Shown: positions 3,532-35,767, numbered from the stretch's first letter. The stretch is DNA of 64,000 bases from Minisyncoccia bacterium (GCA_049317285.1 JBMOIO010000002.1:15312-79311), one strand, 5' to 3'. Translations and numbers: made by a program. The notes: generated by a model not told the origin, from the sequence alone.

Positions 3532-5496
3532 CTATACGCTGAAACGCTTTCGAAAGAGGCCTGCGCGGGCAGAAAATGGAGCTGTGACAGAACTCGCCCC
3601 CTGCCCCAAAGGTGCACCAGGGTCGGAAACAACTGCGTAAAATACCCCATCAGGCACTGTGAGATACGCTCGCCCAAAAACTGAAGAAAGTGCTTTGGTT
3701 ACTAGGGTATTTGTCTCCTTTTCAAATACAGCAATAAGCTTGCCCGCCACAGGGAGTTCGGCAGTTTTCTCTAAAAATACGCTTGCATAGGAACCAAACA
3801 CTCCTACCCCTCGAAGCACAGCAATAACAACATAGGTAGCACATACTACAAGAGAGAGAAGGCTTGGGAAGAAGATTACATACAACACTGAAGCTAACAA
3901 TCCTATACCAAAAATCAAAAAGGCTACATTGGTGAGCACTACCTCATGGTAGAGCAAGAATTCTTTGATAGGCGTTATACGAGGAGCTGTTACTGCGCCG
4001 CCTTGGACCGGAACATCAAAGGGTTGTGTCGGTTGGTTGTCGCGAATAAGCATCGGCTGACCACTATAGATACTCTCCGAGAGAAGCGGTGCTGCCGATA
4101 CAAGACCGAGCGTAGTATTTTGCGCATCAACCCGGATAGTATACGCACCGTCCGGAACTACTGCACTAAAAGATCCATCGCTTTGTGTGATAACCGTTGC
4201 TGCCACTGCACCGTATGCATTGACCAGTGTCACATGTCCGAGCGCAATCGGCTGATGGGTCACACTGTCATAAACTACTCCCCACGGCTTAACAGCAGGG
4301 GTAATCCCTAGCACAACAAGGAGATTCTGCCATAAGAGGTACGGGAAGAGTAATAACTCTTCTACCCCCGCAATAGGCACAAAAATAAACAAGAGGAGTG
4401 CAAGTGCGACAATAATAGTAAGTCCGACCACTGCAAGACTAAAAAGAATGTTTTGTATAAACGGATTTGTCATCAGTTCAGCAAGCGCGCGGTTCATTGT
4501 ATCGAAAAGCTCTTGCAACCATTGGATAACATGGCGCAAAAATTCAACTATTTGGTCGCGTGCTTCGGGGAGCTCTATCGTGACAATATCGGTAACGGTA
4601 TTGATAATTGGTGTAATAATAGGAATAACGACTGATTCTGGTGTGAAGTCTGGTTCTGATGGCTCAGATTGCCCAGTTTCTGGGGTAGGAGTAGCGGGTC
4701 TAGTAGGTCGTACTGTACCTGGAACTGCAGGAGTAGTAGGGGTTGTCGGTGTCACCGGCAGAGTCTCAAGAGGTGTTGGTACTACTGGCCAATCCTCGTA
4801 ACGATATTCTCCACTTCCTCCATAAATACATTGGGGGTCATCCCTATCAATAAAGCCATCTCCATCATCATCAATACCATTAGTACACTGTGTAAGTGTT
4901 TCGTCAGGATCATCATCGTCATCAGTACGATGGCGCGATGGAAGATAGTCTGTCTGTACGCAGTTTGCAAGAACAGTACAGTTAAACTCAATCCACCCAA
5001 AGTTCTCGCTCCATGCATAGCCGAGATCACCACCATTAACACCGCGGAAGTATCCATCCCCGTCAATTTGCACCTGCGGCACACTACTGTTATTAAATGG
5101 TCCGAAGTTAATCCAACCAGTATTTTCACCCCACGCATAGCCTGAGAGCGTACCTTCTCCTGAAATATCTACGCGAAAGTTTCCATTTGTGGAACTACAA
5201 CCACTTGATGTATCACTACAATTCATGACTATATACCCCGCGAGAGCACCCCATGCATACCCAGAGAGCCCTTCATCGGTAACTCGTATTCCATAGGCGT
5301 CTTGGGTCGTAAATTTTCCAAAGTTTATTCGAGTGTCGCTACTCGTACTCCCAACATCTGGCAAGTTGTAAAGATTAACCAAATAATTTCCACTGTTACG
5401 CGGATCAATCGTACCGTTTATATCTGATGCATAAGCACTCCATCCAATAAATAGTACTGAGAGAATTATAAAGGAGAATGCGAAGCGCAATTTCAT
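3532..5496 (-). CDS. large secreted/membrane surface protein with W-rich repeats, TSP3-like acidic Ca-binding loop, Pro/Thr linker, TM segments and a CarboxypepD_reg-like beta domain
   Basis: start reset to MKLRFAFSFIIL signal peptide (ORF track extends to 5547 and overlaps the M50 gene). Three G[YT]AW(G/S)ENxGWIxF repeats; DDDDDPDETLTQCTNGIDDDGDGFIDRDDPQC; PVTPTTPTTPAVPG linker; several hydrophobic helices; SDGSFSAVVPDGAYTIRVDA. Confidence 0.6.
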   Translation of the reverse strand: MKLRFAFSFIILSVLFIGWSAYASDINGTIDPRNSGNYLVNLYNLPDVGSTSSDTRINFGKFTTQDAYGIRVTDEGLSGYAWGALAGYIVMNCSDTSSGCSSTNGNFRVDISGEGTLSGYAWGENTGWINFGPFNNSSVPQVQIDGDGYFRGVNGGDLGYAWSENFGWIEFNCTVLANCVQTDYLPSRHRTDDDDDPDETLTQCTNGIDDDGDGFIDRDDPQCIYGGSGEYRYEDWPVVPTPLETLPVTPTTPTTPAVPGTVRPTRPATPTPETGQSEPSEPDFTPESVVIPIITPIINTVTDIVTIELPEARDQIVEFLRHVIQWLQELFDTMNRALAELMTNPFIQNILFSLAVVGLTIIVALALLLFIFVPIAGVEELLLFPYLLWQNLLVVLGITPAVKPWGVVYDSVTHQPIALGHVTLVNAYGAVAATVITQSDGSFSAVVPDGAYTIRVDAQNTTLGLVSAAPLLSESIYSGQPMLIRDNQPTQPFDVPVQGGAVTAPRITPIKEFLLYHEVVLTNVAFLIFGIGLLASVLYVIFFPSLLSLVVCATYVVIAVLRGVGVFGSYASVFLEKTAELPVAGKLIAVFEKETNTLVTKALSSVFGRAYLTVPDGVFYAVVSDPGAPLGQGASSVTAPFSARAGLFRKRFSV

Positions 5497-6956: not shown

Positions 6957-7820
6957 TTATTTCTGCCCCCATTTTATTCCATCAGTCATAAGTGTCACGG
7001 TCCCCTTCTCCTGAGTGCTTATAAAAGGGATGCCAAATTGCTTCAATCGATCTGTTACTTCTTTTGCGGGGTGCCCATAGCGATTAGCAACTCCGGCTGA
7101 AACAAGCCCAAGAATAGGACTTGTCGCCTTAAGAAATTCTGCACTCGTTGAAGTTTTTGAGCCGTGATGCCCAAGCTTCAAAATATCAACATCTACTGAC
7201 GCTTTGTCTCCGACCGAAAGAAAGTGTTCAATGGAGGCAGGAGCATCTCCTGTCAACAGCATACTTGTATTCCCCATCTGCAGTCTCCCGACAATCGATG
7301 CGCTGTTCGTCTCCCAAAAGGTTGTAGCTCTATCGGGAAAGAGTATCTCAAATGATGTCTGTACGCTTGAGTCATTATCAAGCGCGATAGTCATACCCCG
7401 ACGAGCGTAATATGCCGGAATATTTCTTTTTTCCAATTCTGAAAAAAGGGCGCGAAACTGGTCCGTATCGGTCAAAACATTGGAAGTAAGAAACACTCCG
7501 ACACTGTACCGAGAAAGCACGAGCGGAAGTCCTCCAATATGGTCGGCATCAGGGTGAGTCGCAATGACAACATCAATAGTTCTATCCCCCTTCGGCATCA
7601 CGCGCGCAAGCTCTGAGAGGACACTCGCGTCCTTGCCTCCATCAACGAGTATCTGCTTGCCGTTTTTTGCTTGTATCAAAAAACTGTCGCCCTGCCCTAC
7701 ATTGAGCATATACACCTTTGCTAATCCATCGCCCTTTTTCGGAAGTATAAGAATACAATAAAGACCTATGCCCAAAGTGATCAGTGTCATTAGGAGAAGA
7801 GTCTGAGATTTGCGGTCCAT
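6957..7820 (-). CDS. ComEC/Rec2 C-terminal metallo-beta-lactamase domain protein (stand-alone, N-terminal TM anchor)
   Basis: 287 aa; N-terminal TM; MBL motifs HPDADHIGG, LTGD, HHGS. Confidence 0.8.
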   Translation of the reverse strand: MDRKSQTLLLMTLITLGIGLYCILILPKKGDGLAKVYMLNVGQGDSFLIQAKNGKQILVDGGKDASVLSELARVMPKGDRTIDVVIATHPDADHIGGLPLVLSRYSVGVFLTSNVLTDTDQFRALFSELEKRNIPAYYARRGMTIALDNDSSVQTSFEILFPDRATTFWETNSASIVGRLQMGNTSMLLTGDAPASIEHFLSVGDKASVDVDILKLGHHGSKTSTSAEFLKATSPILGLVSAGVANRYGHPAKEVTDRLKQFGIPFISTQEKGTVTLMTDGIKWGQK

Positions 7821-31947: not shown

Positions 31948-32478
31948 ATGAATTTACTTCACGAAATTACTGCCGGAAACAATGTGCCTGACATTATCAA
32001 TTGTATAATTGAAATTCCAAAAGGCTCAAAAAACAAATACGAAATCGACAAGGAAACCGGCCTCATCATGCTCGACCGTGCAATGCACACTTCACAAGAC
32101 TATCCGTTTGACTACGGCTTCATGCCACAGAGTCACTGGGAAGATGGCGACCCGCTTGATGTAGTCGTCCTTACTACCTACCCGCTTGCGCCCGGCATCT
32201 TGGTAAAAGTTCGCCCGGTCGGCATCGTCAACATGATCGACGACGGCGACTCTGACGCAAAAATTATTGCCGTACCAGAGAAAGACCCGCGATGGGACGA
32301 TGTGCAAGACCTCAGTGATGTAAACAAACACACCGTCAAAGAAATCGAACACTTCTTCCTGACCTATAAACAAATTCAAAAGAAGGCCGTTTCAATCGAT
32401 AGTATTGGAAACAAAGCCGACGCTCAGGCTGCAATCCTCAAGAGCCAAGAACTCTACAAAGAAAAGTTTCAGAAATAA
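31948..32478 (+). CDS. ppa: inorganic pyrophosphatase (family I)
   Basis: DPLDVVVL, DDGDSDAKIIAV. Confidence 0.9.
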   Translation: MNLLHEITAGNNVPDIINCIIEIPKGSKNKYEIDKETGLIMLDRAMHTSQDYPFDYGFMPQSHWEDGDPLDVVVLTTYPLAPGILVKVRPVGIVNMIDDGDSDAKIIAVPEKDPRWDDVQDLSDVNKHTVKEIEHFFLTYKQIQKKAVSIDSIGNKADAQAAILKSQELYKEKFQK

Positions 32479-32493
32479 TCGAAAAAATATACT

Positions 32494-32529
32494 GTAGCAA
32501 AAAACTCCCGAAAGGGATTTTTTTGCTAC
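32494..32529. terminator. bidirectional terminator between ppa and the DGR RT
   Basis: gtagcaaaaaa..ctcccgaaaggg..ttttttgctac nested hairpin with T/A runs on both sides. Confidence 0.6.
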
Positions 32530-32541
32530 CAATCCATATTA

Positions 32542-33513
32542 TTAGATTCGCATTCTTTGTCTGATTTCATACGTATCACCATGCATCAACAATCCGCGAT
32601 ACGAGTTAACCGTTTCCGACTTAGGATATCCCTTAAGCTTTTTGAATATCTTTCTCTTTGTGGTGGTTCGTATTTGACGATGATAGGGAAAATGTATCCA
32701 CCCAAGAAAATCGACACCTGTTGCGAATGTCTTGATGTACACTTTGTGCTCGTGCATTTGAAGCTTTAACTTTTCATTCAAGAAAGCATGGATTTTTTGA
32801 AGAATGCCTTCCAAGTATTCCTTTGTACTGGACAGTATGACAAAATCATCCGCATAGCGGATATAGTATGTTACTCGAAGCCCCTGCTTCATGAACATAT
32901 CAAATTCATGCATGTATACATTTACCAACAATTGAGAAGTAAGGTTTCCGAGCGGTAACCCCACTCCTTCTCTCGTCGTATGAAAACTTGAGGTAACTTC
33001 CCGGATGAGCCACAACAGTTCTTCATCCTCAACATGACGCTTCAAAATTAAAACAAGTATTTCATGATCGATACTTGCAAAGAATTTCTTGATGTCACAC
33101 TTGAGTACATAACATGTCCTCGTATTGTTCTTTGAAACCCTCAGGGCAAATTCCTGAAAACGATCAATTGCTCTGTGAGTTCCCTTGTTCACACGACATG
33201 AAAACGAGTCATGAATGAATCTCTGTTCAAAATAAGGATAAAGCGTCTTATATATTAAATGATGTAACAGTCTGTCTCGGACAATCGCCTTGTGGATATT
33301 CCGAGGCTTTGGGTCAGAGATATTAAAAGCCCAGTATGGCGCATGAGTGTACGTCCGACGGTGAAGCAAGGTGTGCAAGTCGACCAGGTTGTCCGAAAGT
33401 TTCGCCTGGTATTGTATGACATCTTTTTTATGTCGCTTTCCACGAAGAAAACGCTCCCAGGTAACAAGGAGGTTTTCCATCGATATGATATCTTTGTATT
33501 TATGAATCAGCAT
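32542..33513 (-). CDS. diversity-generating retroelement reverse transcriptase
   Basis: 323 aa; RT motifs 1-7 including YIRYADDFVIL and the DGR-specific LPLGNLTSQL (I/LGxxxSQ) in place of the group II QGxxxSP. Confidence 0.9.
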   Translation of the reverse strand: MLIHKYKDIISMENLLVTWERFLRGKRHKKDVIQYQAKLSDNLVDLHTLLHRRTYTHAPYWAFNISDPKPRNIHKAIVRDRLLHHLIYKTLYPYFEQRFIHDSFSCRVNKGTHRAIDRFQEFALRVSKNNTRTCYVLKCDIKKFFASIDHEILVLILKRHVEDEELLWLIREVTSSFHTTREGVGLPLGNLTSQLLVNVYMHEFDMFMKQGLRVTYYIRYADDFVILSSTKEYLEGILQKIHAFLNEKLKLQMHEHKVYIKTFATGVDFLGWIHFPYHRQIRTTTKRKIFKKLKGYPKSETVNSYRGLLMHGDTYEIRQRMRI

Positions 33514-33531
33514 ACATCAACCAATATCACA

Positions 33532-33544
33532 CCCCCCCCCCCCC
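33532..33544. repeat. C13/G13 homopolymeric tract
   Basis: 13 consecutive C on plus strand, 19 nt upstream of the RT start codon and inside the 5' region of the Avd-like frame. Confidence 0.9.
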
Positions 33545-33560
33545 GACACAAACTCCTCTT

Positions 33561-33908
33561 GTCCTTGTCAGAGCGAAGGAAAGTTATGAAGTTTGGCATA
33601 AGCACTTAGTAAACATAAACCGTGTAGACAGATACACCATCGGTGCAAAAATTGACGAGGTATTTCTTTCCTTGCTTGAAAATATTTTTAGAGGTATCTA
33701 TGCTCACGACAAATTTGAGAAGTTATCTGTGGTATCACAGTCACTCGGGAAAAATGATTTATTGAAATTCTTCTTGCAGATCGGTTGGGAACAAAAAGTT
33801 GTTGACCATAAAATCTATGGTGCTTTAATCCTTAAACTTGATGAAGTAGGACGAATGCTCAACGGCTGGAAGAAAAATCTTCAAGAAAAAACTCCCACTA
33901 ACAAGTAG
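33561..33908 (+). CDS. Avd-like four-helix-bundle protein (23S rRNA IVS-protein / bAvd family); start codon uncertain
   Basis: frame continuous from ~33546 to 33908 (..ESYEVWHKHLVNINRVDRY..IGWEQKVVDHKIYGALILKLDEVGRMLNGWKKNLQ); ORF track gives only 33672..33908 from a TTG; no in-frame ATG; opposite strand to RT, TR and target. Confidence 0.45.
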   Translation, partial: VLVRAKESYEVWHKHLVNINRVDRYTIGAKIDEVFLSLLENIFRGIYAHDKFEKLSVVSQSLGKNDLLKFFLQIGWEQKVVDHKIYGALILKLDEVGRMLNGWKKNLQEKTPTNK

Positions 33909-33928
33909 TGAGAGAAATCAAATAAGTA

Positions 33929-34046
33929 GCAGAAGCAAAGGATGCAGTTGTCAGAATTCCAAGTCTTGGAGAAGTTCCCGAGGTTGAAGTTCCAGTCACC
34001 GTCCGAGTTGCGGTTCACGTTAGGCACCCTGTGGTTGCCATCCGAG
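33929..34046 (-). repeat. DGR template repeat (TR)
   Basis: ~118 bp homologous to the 3' end of the target gene; minus-strand sense is AAC-codon rich (..GNH..PNVNRNS..WNFNLGNFS..WNSDNC..). Confidence 0.85.
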
Positions 34047-34298
34047 TACACGCAAGCAGTGTACGATGGGTCATCCGTCCCACCGAAACCAGCGCGTGCC
34101 AATTTCTGCATTTTACTTGGAGCAACAATAGTTCTATCGAGCTCACGGACGCATCGCACCGACTAATTTGTTTTTTCATAAGAGGAGGTACCGAACTGCA
34201 AAGACATACCCGACAGTTTCTCACGAATACCCCTTACGAGATTTCGATGCCATGAAGCCGTAACCACATGATCGTATCTACTATCCTTGTGCAGTATA

Positions 34299-34331
34299 AA
34301 TAAAAAAGGGCCTTTGCAAAAGCAAAGGCCC
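34299..34331 (-). terminator. strong hairpin + T-run downstream of the DGR target gene (terminator and/or DGR target-proximal hairpin)
   Basis: gggcctttgc-aaaa-gcaaaggccc 10-bp GC stem; minus strand is followed by TTTTTTATTTAT; lies ~60 nt 3' of VR. Confidence 0.75.
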
Positions 34332-34384
34332 AGTAAAGGTTCAAAGGAACAAATAACATGTTTATGTGGCAAATGACCAAAGGT

Positions 34385-35107
34385 CTATTTGTCGCAGAAG
34401 CAAAGGATGCAGTCGCCAGAACCCCAAGGCCCGGAGAAGTACCCGAGGCCGAAGCCCCAGCCACCGCCCGAGCCGCGGTACACGTCAGGCACCCTGTGGT
34501 CGCCAACCGAGTCGCTCCATAATGTGTCTTTTTCATCGAAGGAAACCGTCCATTTTTCTACCGGAAATTCATCCGCCTTAAGGTCTTGTGCCAGAGTTAA
34601 ACCCTGACCGCCGACCAGAATGGCGCGCTGTTTTTTCAGGAAGTTCATGCAGTCTTCGCTCGATACCGTTTCCAGAACAGGGAAGATTTTTACAAGATAG
34701 GTTTTTCCGGGCTCCAGTTTGTTCGTAGCGTTCTCATAATTCGAACTTTTTAATGCATCATTGTAATGATAAGTCGTTTTCAGCTTTTTTGTCTTTTTAC
34801 CGAACTGGTCGATCTGTTTGTCATCATCATAATCCATTGGAACGGTCAGATCGAATTCAACAAGAGCCGGACCAAACCGTTGATCGATAACGGCAAGCTT
34901 TTTGAGCTTTCCGATAACAAATTCTTTGAAGCCGTTTTGCAGCAAGTCACCTTTTTCAATGATTTCCTGCGCTTCTTCTTTTGAAAAGTTGAAGGTTTCG
35001 AGATCAATGGCGCTTATGCCATCTTCGAGGAAACGTCTAAGGAAACGTCTAATTTGTTTGCGTTGTCCATCTGTCATTAATTCCGGGTGCGTGATCTGGT
35101 TAGTCAT
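34385..35107 (-). CDS. DGR target protein with C-terminal variable region
   Basis: 240 aa; the C-terminal 40 aa (..GDHRVPDVYRGSGGGWGFGLGYFSGPWGSGDCILCFCDK) correspond to TR with substitutions only at template A positions. Confidence 0.85.
   Translation of the reverse strand: MTNQITHPELMTDGQRKQIRRFLRRFLEDGISAIDLETFNFSKEEAQEIIEKGDLLQNGFKEFVIGKLKKLAVIDQRFGPALVEFDLTVPMDYDDDKQIDQFGKKTKKLKTTYHYNDALKSSNYENATNKLEPGKTYLVKIFPVLETVSSEDCMNFLKKQRAILVGGQGLTLAQDLKADEFPVEKWTVSFDEKDTLWSDSVGDHRVPDVYRGSGGGWGFGLGYFSGPWGSGDCILCFCDK
34394..34512 (-). repeat. DGR variable repeat (VR)
   Basis: ~21 mismatches to TR over ~118 bp, every one at a plus-strand T of TR (A in sense orientation); 19-nt invariant 3' end. 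Confidence 0.85.
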
Positions 35108-35305
35108 CGCGATAGTGTTTTAAATGAGCTAGTCGGTTTATCTGCCGAAACAGGAATAAGTATCCCTTATCTGAATATATGATAACATATATATTAATAA
35201 TGTCAATAATTGTTAAATGGGGTATATTACATAACAATTCCGGGGCTTTGCAAGTAATACCCTTCCCTTTGGGTCGTCTCTATGCTATAAATACGTATAT
35301 ATAGT

Positions 35306-35767
35306 ATGAAATACCTTATTACTACATTCGCGCTCGTTATTGGCCTTATGGCACCTACTGCCGTAAGTCTCGCGCAAACAACCCAAAGTGCACCTGCGCC
35401 GACGCTTTTTGATGTCAATGCAAACGCACCTCTTTCAGTTCGCAAGACCTTTGTCGAGACCAACCTCCGCGACCTTTTGGCACAACTGAGCGATATTCAT
35501 GCGCGTGTGCAAACTGCAAGCAACCGTCTTGCAAAAAACGATATCGACGTAAACGCTTCGAATACAAGTCTCACGATGGCTCACGCCGCTCTTTTGACTG
35601 CAAAAACAAACCTCGACATTTTTGCACAAACCCCTCTCACTGAGAGCCCTACTACTGTCGCAACCCTTCGCGCACAAGCAAAAGCTGCTGAAGACTCTCT
35701 TAAAACCGCTCGCGCAAGCCTGATTGAAAGCATTGCTGCACTTAAGCTTACGCTTAACTCACAATAA
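35306..35767 (+). CDS. secreted alpha-helical hypothetical protein
   Basis: signal peptide MKYLITTFALVIGLMAPTAVSLA; Ala/Leu-rich. Confidence 0.4.
   Translation: MKYLITTFALVIGLMAPTAVSLAQTTQSAPAPTLFDVNANAPLSVRKTFVETNLRDLLAQLSDIHARVQTASNRLAKNDIDVNASNTSLTMAHAALLTAKTNLDIFAQTPLTESPTTVATLRAQAKAAEDSLKTARASLIESIAALKLTLNSQ

Follow-up and report, generated by a model that had tools for sequence, protein, structure and literature searches.

The DNA analyzed here, a 64,000-nt stretch from a Minisyncoccia bacterium (GCA_049317285.1, JBMOIO010000002.1:15312-79311; hereafter the window), contains a diversity-generating retroelement (DGR) in which a run of 13 C separates the start codon of avd, the gene for the accessory protein Avd, from the frame that encodes the Avd core. 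We regard it as somewhat probable that this tract acts as a slipped-strand contingency locus by which Avd, and thereby DGR mutagenesis, is switched on and off. An initial annotation of the window had given equal weight to such a switch and to an assembly error. The comparative data presented here favor a switch-type reading, because the repeat site is conserved among relatives, dinucleotide repeats substitute for poly-C, repeat length varies between otherwise identical assemblies, and relatives that lack the repeat are in frame; by contrast, the exact length of 13 in the window may still be an error.

The C13 tract and the start of avd

Features at the tract (window coordinates):
33532 to 33544, plus strand: C13 simple-sequence repeat (SSR) near the 5' end of the avd coding sequence, downstream of the conserved start codon and ahead of the Avd core
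33502 to 33504, plus strand: avd start codon (ATG), conserved in the family; a tract of 13 C puts it out of register with the Avd core
33502 to 33609, plus strand: short open reading frame (ORF) that begins with the avd ATG when the tract has 13 C (MNQHTSTNITPPPPRHKLLLSLSERRKVMKFGIST, then stop), the predicted OFF product
33546 to 33908, plus strand: Avd core frame (TQTPLVLVRAKESYEVW...TPTNK), with stop codon TAG at 33906 to 33908
33516 to 33518, plus strand: ATC codon in the Avd frame, apparent non-canonical start in the public annotation (from comparison with protein P0001)
32542 to 33513, minus strand: DGR reverse transcriptase (RT), 323 aa, with ATG at 33513 to 33511 and a match to RVT_1 (E 6.9e-24)

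The homopolymer is exactly C13 on the plus strand (G13 on the RT strand), as the initial annotation had it, and is both the sole homopolymer longer than 8 nt and the sole G/C run of at least 7 nt within the 64-kb window; about 5e-4 runs of at least 13 are expected by chance from base composition. It lies upstream of RT, at a spacing of 18 nt from the RT start codon. The avd and RT start codons bracket a 12-nt overlap from which the two genes diverge, and the proposed pairing of ATG 33502 with the RT start is borne out, as ATGAATCAGCAT (33502 to 33513) and the RT start ATGCTGATTCAT are reverse complements of each other. The plus-strand Avd-like frame is open from 33489 to TAG 33906 to 33908, and the earlier statement that it holds no ATG, GTG or TTG before 33672 is likewise correct, the earliest such codon being TTG 33672. 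When every tract length from 9 to 17 was translated, ATG 33502 fused to the Avd frame at 11, 14 and 17 C only; the lengths of 12 or 15 C previously said to restore the frame reflect an arithmetic slip, and the deposited 13 C is one C too few for an in-frame reading, or two too many. The window tract has the uninterrupted repeat that characterizes contingency loci (about 7 or more units for G/C) and lies, as in such loci, at a 5' coding position where length alters the frame.

Among the 120 best Avd homologs, the N-terminus mostly reads M[SN][EQ]H(K/T)...PPP[AT]Q[AT]PLVLVR, and this N-terminus (M[SN][EQ]H...PPP[AT]Q[AT]PLVLVR) is what is obtained from ATG 33502 with 14 C; the route from this ATG leads through a short variable peptide and then a proline run into the Avd core. 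Codons for PLVLVR and [AT]Q[AT]P vary synonymously among loci, and the stretch just past the tract is therefore translated; since no start codon lies between the tract and this translated PLVLVR stretch, ribosomes must cross the tract. Database entries reflect the difficulty of calling this start. Truncated calls beginning at (V)LVR account for 27 of the 120 homologs, the same Avd core is found with three N-termini in the protein database (P0006, P0007 and P0047), and P0019 and P0093 are a similar pair differing at the N-terminus. With regard to the window itself, P0001 (NCBI, "four helix bundle protein", 130 aa, from a Minisyncoccia metagenome-assembled genome [MAG]) equals the translation of 33516 to 33905 with Met at position 1; because P0001 is identical to the window Avd frame from ATC 33516, its source record evidently carries the same 13 C, and the annotator evidently fell back on the non-canonical ATC start. 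The P0001 annotation rescued avd in this way, and the frameshift was not flagged.

Repeat conservation, reading frames and tract length in related loci

A search of genome contigs yielded 576 relatives of the window RT, and PF22296, the Pfam bAvd family, is carried by 293 Avd homologs. For comparison of the repeat site, we took 80 RT-homologous loci from species-representative genomes, 80 from metagenomes, and a few found by exact protein look-up; the survey covers one RT clade, with 56-77% identity to the window RT. A poly-C tract of 6-15 C (mode 10) occurs at the same position in 118 of 149 Avd-bearing related loci, a dinucleotide repeat, (CT)8-16, (GA)8-17 or (CA)10-13, replaces it in 17, and 13 have neither. 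The initial annotation had named orthologs without a homopolymer as grounds for giving up a switch, and the comparison does not supply these grounds: about 90% of the 149 related DGR loci, drawn from many studies and assemblers, have a simple repeat at the avd site. G/C runs of at least 8 nt number 122 in 911 kb of related loci, spread over 119 loci (i.e., about one per locus, at the avd site), and the repeat persists while its flanks diverge freely, down to an Avd identity of approximately 32%. The occurrence of four repeat units at one site therefore argues for selection for instability, not for a proline run; on the sequences compared, the conserved property is a slippage-prone DNA repeat rather than the proline run of the protein, and in some lineages dinucleotide repeats appear to have replaced poly-C convergently. 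A poly-proline motif as the conserved feature was accordingly rejected, as dinucleotide repeats encode other peptides, and so was a role in G-quadruplex or RNA structure, which would not be common to the (CT)n, (GA)n and (CA)n forms.

Two loci carry further runs that deserve mention. Away from the avd site, locus L013 has two additional G/C runs, of 8-9 nt (7062 to 7069 and 5271 to 5279); one of these follows directly after an ATG (ATGATAACCCCCCCCTAATG) and may mark another phase-variable gene start in that genome. The 48-nt poly-C at the contig end of L021 (1 to 48) is a typical two-colour sequencer artefact and was excluded.

Reading frames at the site were called ON or OFF on the basis of canonical start codons. 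Upstream of the repeat, an ATG lies in frame in 29 of 121 unique repeat-bearing loci; another 6 offer just a GTG or TTG in such a position, and the remaining 86 have no canonical in-frame start; 81 of these 86 are open through the tract and 5 have an intervening stop. By contrast, in 8 of 9 unique repeat-free loci the upstream ATG and the core share one frame (e.g., MIKHALVLVK, MNTHEQIVSPTIPLVLVQ), and in-frame status differs between repeat-bearing and repeat-free loci (Fisher p = 1.7e-4). Because the repeat-free loci are in frame in 8 of 9 cases, frame scrambling is, as judged from these sequences, tied specifically to the repeat, and avd naturally starts at the upstream ATG. The closest ATG on the upstream side occupies frame 0 in 26 loci, frame +1 in 36 (the class into which the window falls) and frame +2 in 58 (chi-square p = 0.0012). 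The in-frame class is the rarest among unique related loci, and the class with one nucleotide too many, which either the loss of 1 nt or a +1 ribosomal shift would correct, comprises 58/120 loci (48%) and 19/30 close relatives (63%). A conserved relation between the upstream and downstream frames, as a programmed ribosomal frameshift requires, was not found among these loci, where all three frames occur.

Direct evidence for changes in tract length came from clustering loci by identical 25-nt flanks, which identified, among relatives, four clusters of independent assemblies that show the length polymorphism between identical flanks expected of a contingency locus:
L020 (C11) and L100 (C15): 5957 nt aligned, 0 mismatches, one 4-nt gap
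L052 and L127, (CT)n of 25 and 19 nt: 5963 nt aligned, 0 mismatches, one 6-nt gap
L081, L083, L084 and L085 (C10) and L082 (C9): 3390 nt aligned, 0 mismatches, one 1-nt gap
L017 and L095 (C8) and L096 (C9): 4263 nt aligned, 0 mismatches, one 1-nt gap

Two of the four pairs toggle the predicted Avd between full length and truncated: from the same ATG, a product of 126 aa is predicted in L096 (C9) and one of 13 aa in L017 and L095, and, in the other cluster, a product of 130 aa in L082 (C9) and one of 28 aa in L081. Neither L020 nor L100 is in frame, and their frames differ; the (CT)n change between L052 and L127 keeps the frame. The tract was invariant in four further clusters (L034/115/118, L049/126, L061/137 and L033/113), and L044/L122 and L051/L129 each look like one contig deposited twice and were not counted as independent.

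Additional observations concern two of the polymorphic clusters. L081, L083 and L084, each from a different Joint Genome Institute (JGI) sample, match at 100% identity across 3348 nt, a stretch that takes in the target gene and its variable repeat (VR), and all three carry C10, out of frame with the ATG; these features agree with an inactive DGR in that population but are no proof of one. L095 contains a 78-nt perfect direct repeat upstream of RT (1583 to 1660 and 2064 to 2141) and, set against L096, shows four G/A changes as well as several blocks of difference close to the template repeat (TR) and VR; these differences may represent either mixing of TR and VR during assembly or real DGR-driven change. 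They were dropped as evidence of DGR activity, because unrelated upstream sequence and the 78-nt repeat both interfere with the alignment.

The proposed switch and competing explanations

In the switch that we propose, replication slippage would alter repeat length within the first ~15 codons of avd and so determine whether ATG 33502 is in register with the four-helix-bundle core of Avd. In the Bordetella phage model, DGRs depend on Avd for both cDNA synthesis and retrohoming, and the repeat would for this reason gate DGR mutagenesis; changes in its length would switch targeted hypermutation on and off in a heritable and reversible way, by which a lineage could freeze a useful variant of the target protein and resume diversification later. 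The window consensus of 13 C would be OFF and a single insertion (14 C) would turn it ON; at 13 C, trace amounts of Avd at most would be made, from the near-cognate ATC start or by slippage. The proposal further implies that switching would occur at high frequency within populations, that OFF alleles would lack functional Avd, that DGR activity would track the switch, and that expression of Avd or RT would change with repeat length in the window strain. A broader version, which we put forward tentatively and rate at slightly less than an even prospect, is that the conserved, convergent and hypermutable repeat at the avd/RT start is a stochastic heritable switch of the whole retroelement in the candidate phyla radiation (CPR)/Patescibacteria, with most populations OFF and one slip from ON, and that it may coordinate the Avd frame with the promoter spacing of a leaderless RT transcript.

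A number of observations weigh against a slippage switch. All sequences are consensus assemblies, mostly from short reads, and some assembly pairs may share overlapping sample sets; in addition, no near-identical relative of the window was found in the genome and metagenome scans or in exact-protein look-ups of the window RT and P0001, the best RT identity being 77%. Most consensus sequences are OFF. The same C9 OFF allele is present in the three contigs viewed for P0086 (a truncated Avd call with 11 contigs), and a C10 OFF allele is present in the strain of P0006, a protein indexed in 62 collection blocks; such stable OFF alleles could mean that expression is independent of the DNA frame. The frame classes are, moreover, uneven, and the class in excess is the one that a +1 shift would bring into frame, in keeping with +1 slippage of tRNA-Pro on CCC_C.

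Several of these observations would be explained by frame-independent decoding, in which Avd would be made at any DNA length, either because RNA polymerase slips on the long C/G run and yields mRNAs of mixed length or because ribosomes carrying tRNA-Pro slip by +1 or -1 on CCC_C, and the tract would serve as an attenuator or rheostat of expression. We consider this explanation unlikely, although much of the census can be read in its terms: 86 of 121 consensus sequences have no canonical in-frame start, yet the Avd core is intact and conserved; OFF alleles are stable across many samples; the Avd frame is open through the tract in 81 loci; and the commonest class (58/120 loci and 19/30 close relatives) needs exactly the +1 shift that tRNA-Pro makes on CCC_C. 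A programmed frameshift site would, however, be fixed, whereas all three frame relations occur here, and the dinucleotide repeats in 17 loci are classic substrates of DNA slippage and are not known to make ribosomes or polymerase slip. In bacteria, slippage during transcription has been documented chiefly at A/T runs, and length changes at the DNA level were directly observed. A different explanation, which we rate as quite unlikely, is that the G run is a promoter or 5'-untranslated region (5'-UTR) element, located in the spacer or upstream part of the RT promoter, that tunes RT transcription by its length in the manner of the poly-G/C and TA tracts of the porA, opc, fim and hifA/B promoters, with effects on the avd frame being secondary or coupled. 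Two features bear on it:
33892 to 33914, minus strand: terminator-like hairpin and T-run directly after TR, overlapping the avd stop (consensus match only)
33523 to 33528, minus strand: -10-like GATATT, candidate RT promoter element, read from sequence and preceded by TGT

If the terminator-like hairpin (33914 to 33892) that follows TR is functional, RT probably has its own promoter within the 5' end of avd. The tract lies 18 nt upstream of the RT ATG; GATATT lies 3 nt past the G tract and 9 nt before the RT ATG, and as a promoter element it would put the tract in the spacer. Across relatives, TANNNT starts directly after the G tract in 26/105 loci, compared to ~4/105 at other offsets, and the RT ATG most often lies 13 nt past the tract, which is compatible with a leaderless mRNA; this pattern hints that RT is transcribed without a leader from a promoter whose spacer holds the repeat. 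In the window, a TTGTGT-17 nt-GATATT arrangement with an upstream TG may be drawn, in which the tract would occupy the spacer. Nevertheless, no -35 element is conserved at a consistent distance in relatives, a promoter scan by its own criteria gave no minus-strand site here, and the adjacent -10-like hexamer is absent from three quarters of the loci. A promoter role would also leave unexplained why repeat-free relatives are in frame and repeat-bearing relatives scrambled, a pattern that shows that the tract is translated as part of avd; promoter and Avd-frame roles are, at the same time, not mutually exclusive. Finally, the 13 C could be an assembly error for a true 14, or avd could be a frameshifted pseudogene. 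Homopolymers of 13 nt are error-prone on most platforms, one additional C restores the gene, and the public annotation was forced onto an ATC start; still, we judge artefact or decay to be very unlikely. The feature recurs in ~90% of 149 related loci across studies and assemblers, a family pattern that an error in the window leaves unexplained. Sequencing stutter is a poor fit, because read errors do not typically produce length differences of 4 and 6 nt in sequences that are otherwise identical, and because PCR stutter favors n-1, whereas the excess class here is n+1. The window genes nusA, ppa, tig and clpP are intact despite A/T runs of 7-8, the Avd core is free of internal stops, and the adenine-only VR/TR pattern is that of an active system.

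If the slippage switch holds, it would be of high interest to specialists in DGRs and phase variation. Little is settled about how DGR mutagenesis is regulated in nature: diversification that never stops ought to destroy useful variants, and few controls are known. A slippage repeat that gates Avd would offer the very large group of CPR DGRs a simple form of bet-hedging, in which one localized hypermutation mechanism would gate another. It would also explain CPR avd annotations that are frameshifted, truncated or oddly started, and would make repeat length in sequencing reads a measurable marker to correlate with VR diversification in time-series metagenomes. Pipelines for DGR finding and annotation should expect an out-of-frame avd at the tract, instead of calling avd absent or using ad hoc starts.

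The retroelement, its surroundings and known systems

Other features of the element and its surroundings:
33926 to 34047, minus strand: TR, ~410 nt upstream of RT on the same strand
34391 to 34512, minus strand: VR, at the 3' end of the target gene
34385 to 35107, minus strand: DGR target gene (ORF), 240 aa, with no Pfam or NCBIfam match
33461 to 33489, plus strand: promoter-like GTAACA-17-TATGAT, candidate avd promoter (consensus match only), inside the RT coding sequence

TR and VR form a 122-nt repeat pair in which 20 of 20 internal mismatches fall at TR adenines. The Avd frame matches Pfam bAvd PF22296 with E 3.1e-10 and 40.9 bits (cutoff 40) and NCBIfam DivGenRetAVD with E 1.8e-12, yet under the 80-bit cutoff of the latter model; the profile match starts near the codons for PLVLV (about 33555). 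Because RT and an Avd homolog are both present and all 20 TR/VR mismatches are at TR adenines, the locus is, by its sequence signature, a genuine DGR with a history of activity. The orientation of avd is inverted relative to the target gene, TR and RT; inversion of avd relative to TR and RT (the "B3" architecture) is reported in 90% of CPR DGRs (Wu et al. 2018, PMC5758913).

The candidate avd promoter at 33461 to 33489 sits 12 nt upstream of the avd ATG. A second, stronger terminator-like hairpin with a T-run is located at 34308 to 34331 (minus strand), after the target gene, and overlaps a promoter-like site (34320 to 34293, minus strand) that could drive a TR transcript. The two minus-strand hairpins suggest a short TR RNA with no read-through into antisense avd or RT; an Rfam scan of 32000 to 35500 gave only a sub-threshold match, on the terminator hairpin. 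The neighboring genes are ordinary housekeeping genes, and their translations, judged by eye, were read as NusA, pyrophosphatase, trigger factor and ClpP. The nearest relatives are Patescibacteria/Paceibacteria MAGs. L007, L013 and many CAY* and CAZ* MAGs with a Paceibacteria-type DGR are titled "uncultured Gammaproteobacteria" or "Candidatus Saccharibacteria", and these titles are probably binning or labelling errors in automated catalogues.

In the prototype DGR, that of Bordetella phage BPP-1, the order is avd-TR-brt, with avd co-oriented with TR and brt, and we know of no repeat tract at its avd start. The window element shares RT, Avd and adenine-specific TR/VR differences with both BPP-1 and CPR "B3" DGRs (PMC5758913). 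A search of the DGR literature, which did not extend to Paul et al. 2017 (CPR DGRs), found neither a repeat at the avd start nor phase-variable control of a DGR.

Slippery homopolymers that split a start from an ORF in another frame, as here, are also found at sites of programmed frameshifting or transcriptional slippage (e.g., prfB, dnaX, insertion sequence [IS] elements, and poly-A rescue in endosymbionts); unlike at those sites, the frame relation here is unconserved, no stimulatory element is evident, and in some lineages dinucleotide repeats substitute for the homopolymer. Repeats between divergent genes are known from phase-variable promoters, including the TA repeat of Haemophilus influenzae hifA/hifB, the poly-C of Bordetella fim, and the poly-G/C of Neisseria porA and opc. 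As in those systems, the repeat here adjoins a -10-like element of one gene, and a single tract could affect both; unlike in those systems, the tract lies inside the avd coding sequence, it is motif enrichment that suggests a promoter role on the RT side, and no -35 element is conserved. A close likeness is to SSR contingency loci, such as the 5'-coding poly-G/C tracts of Neisseria and Campylobacter and the CT repeat in the signal-peptide region of Helicobacter pylori oipA, in which the repeat, a G/C homopolymer of 8-15 nt or a dinucleotide repeat, likewise lies in the first codons, and in which its length shifts the product between full-length and truncated, as is the case here for the predicted products, and is polymorphic between otherwise identical genomes. 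The modal tract length of 9-10 resembles that of the poly-G loci of Campylobacter, which is poor in mismatch repair. Those contingency loci control surface antigens, restriction-modification genes and glycosyltransferases, whereas the repeat described here lies in the accessory factor of a mutagenic retroelement; its hosts are uncultured Patescibacteria, and it recurs at a single orthologous position throughout a deep clade in which Avd identity falls to ~32%. Taken as a whole, the anatomy of the tract matches that of classical SSR phase variation, in 5'-coding poly-G/C and CT-repeat loci as well as in repeats of divergent promoters, and the element that carries it is a standard CPR-type DGR.

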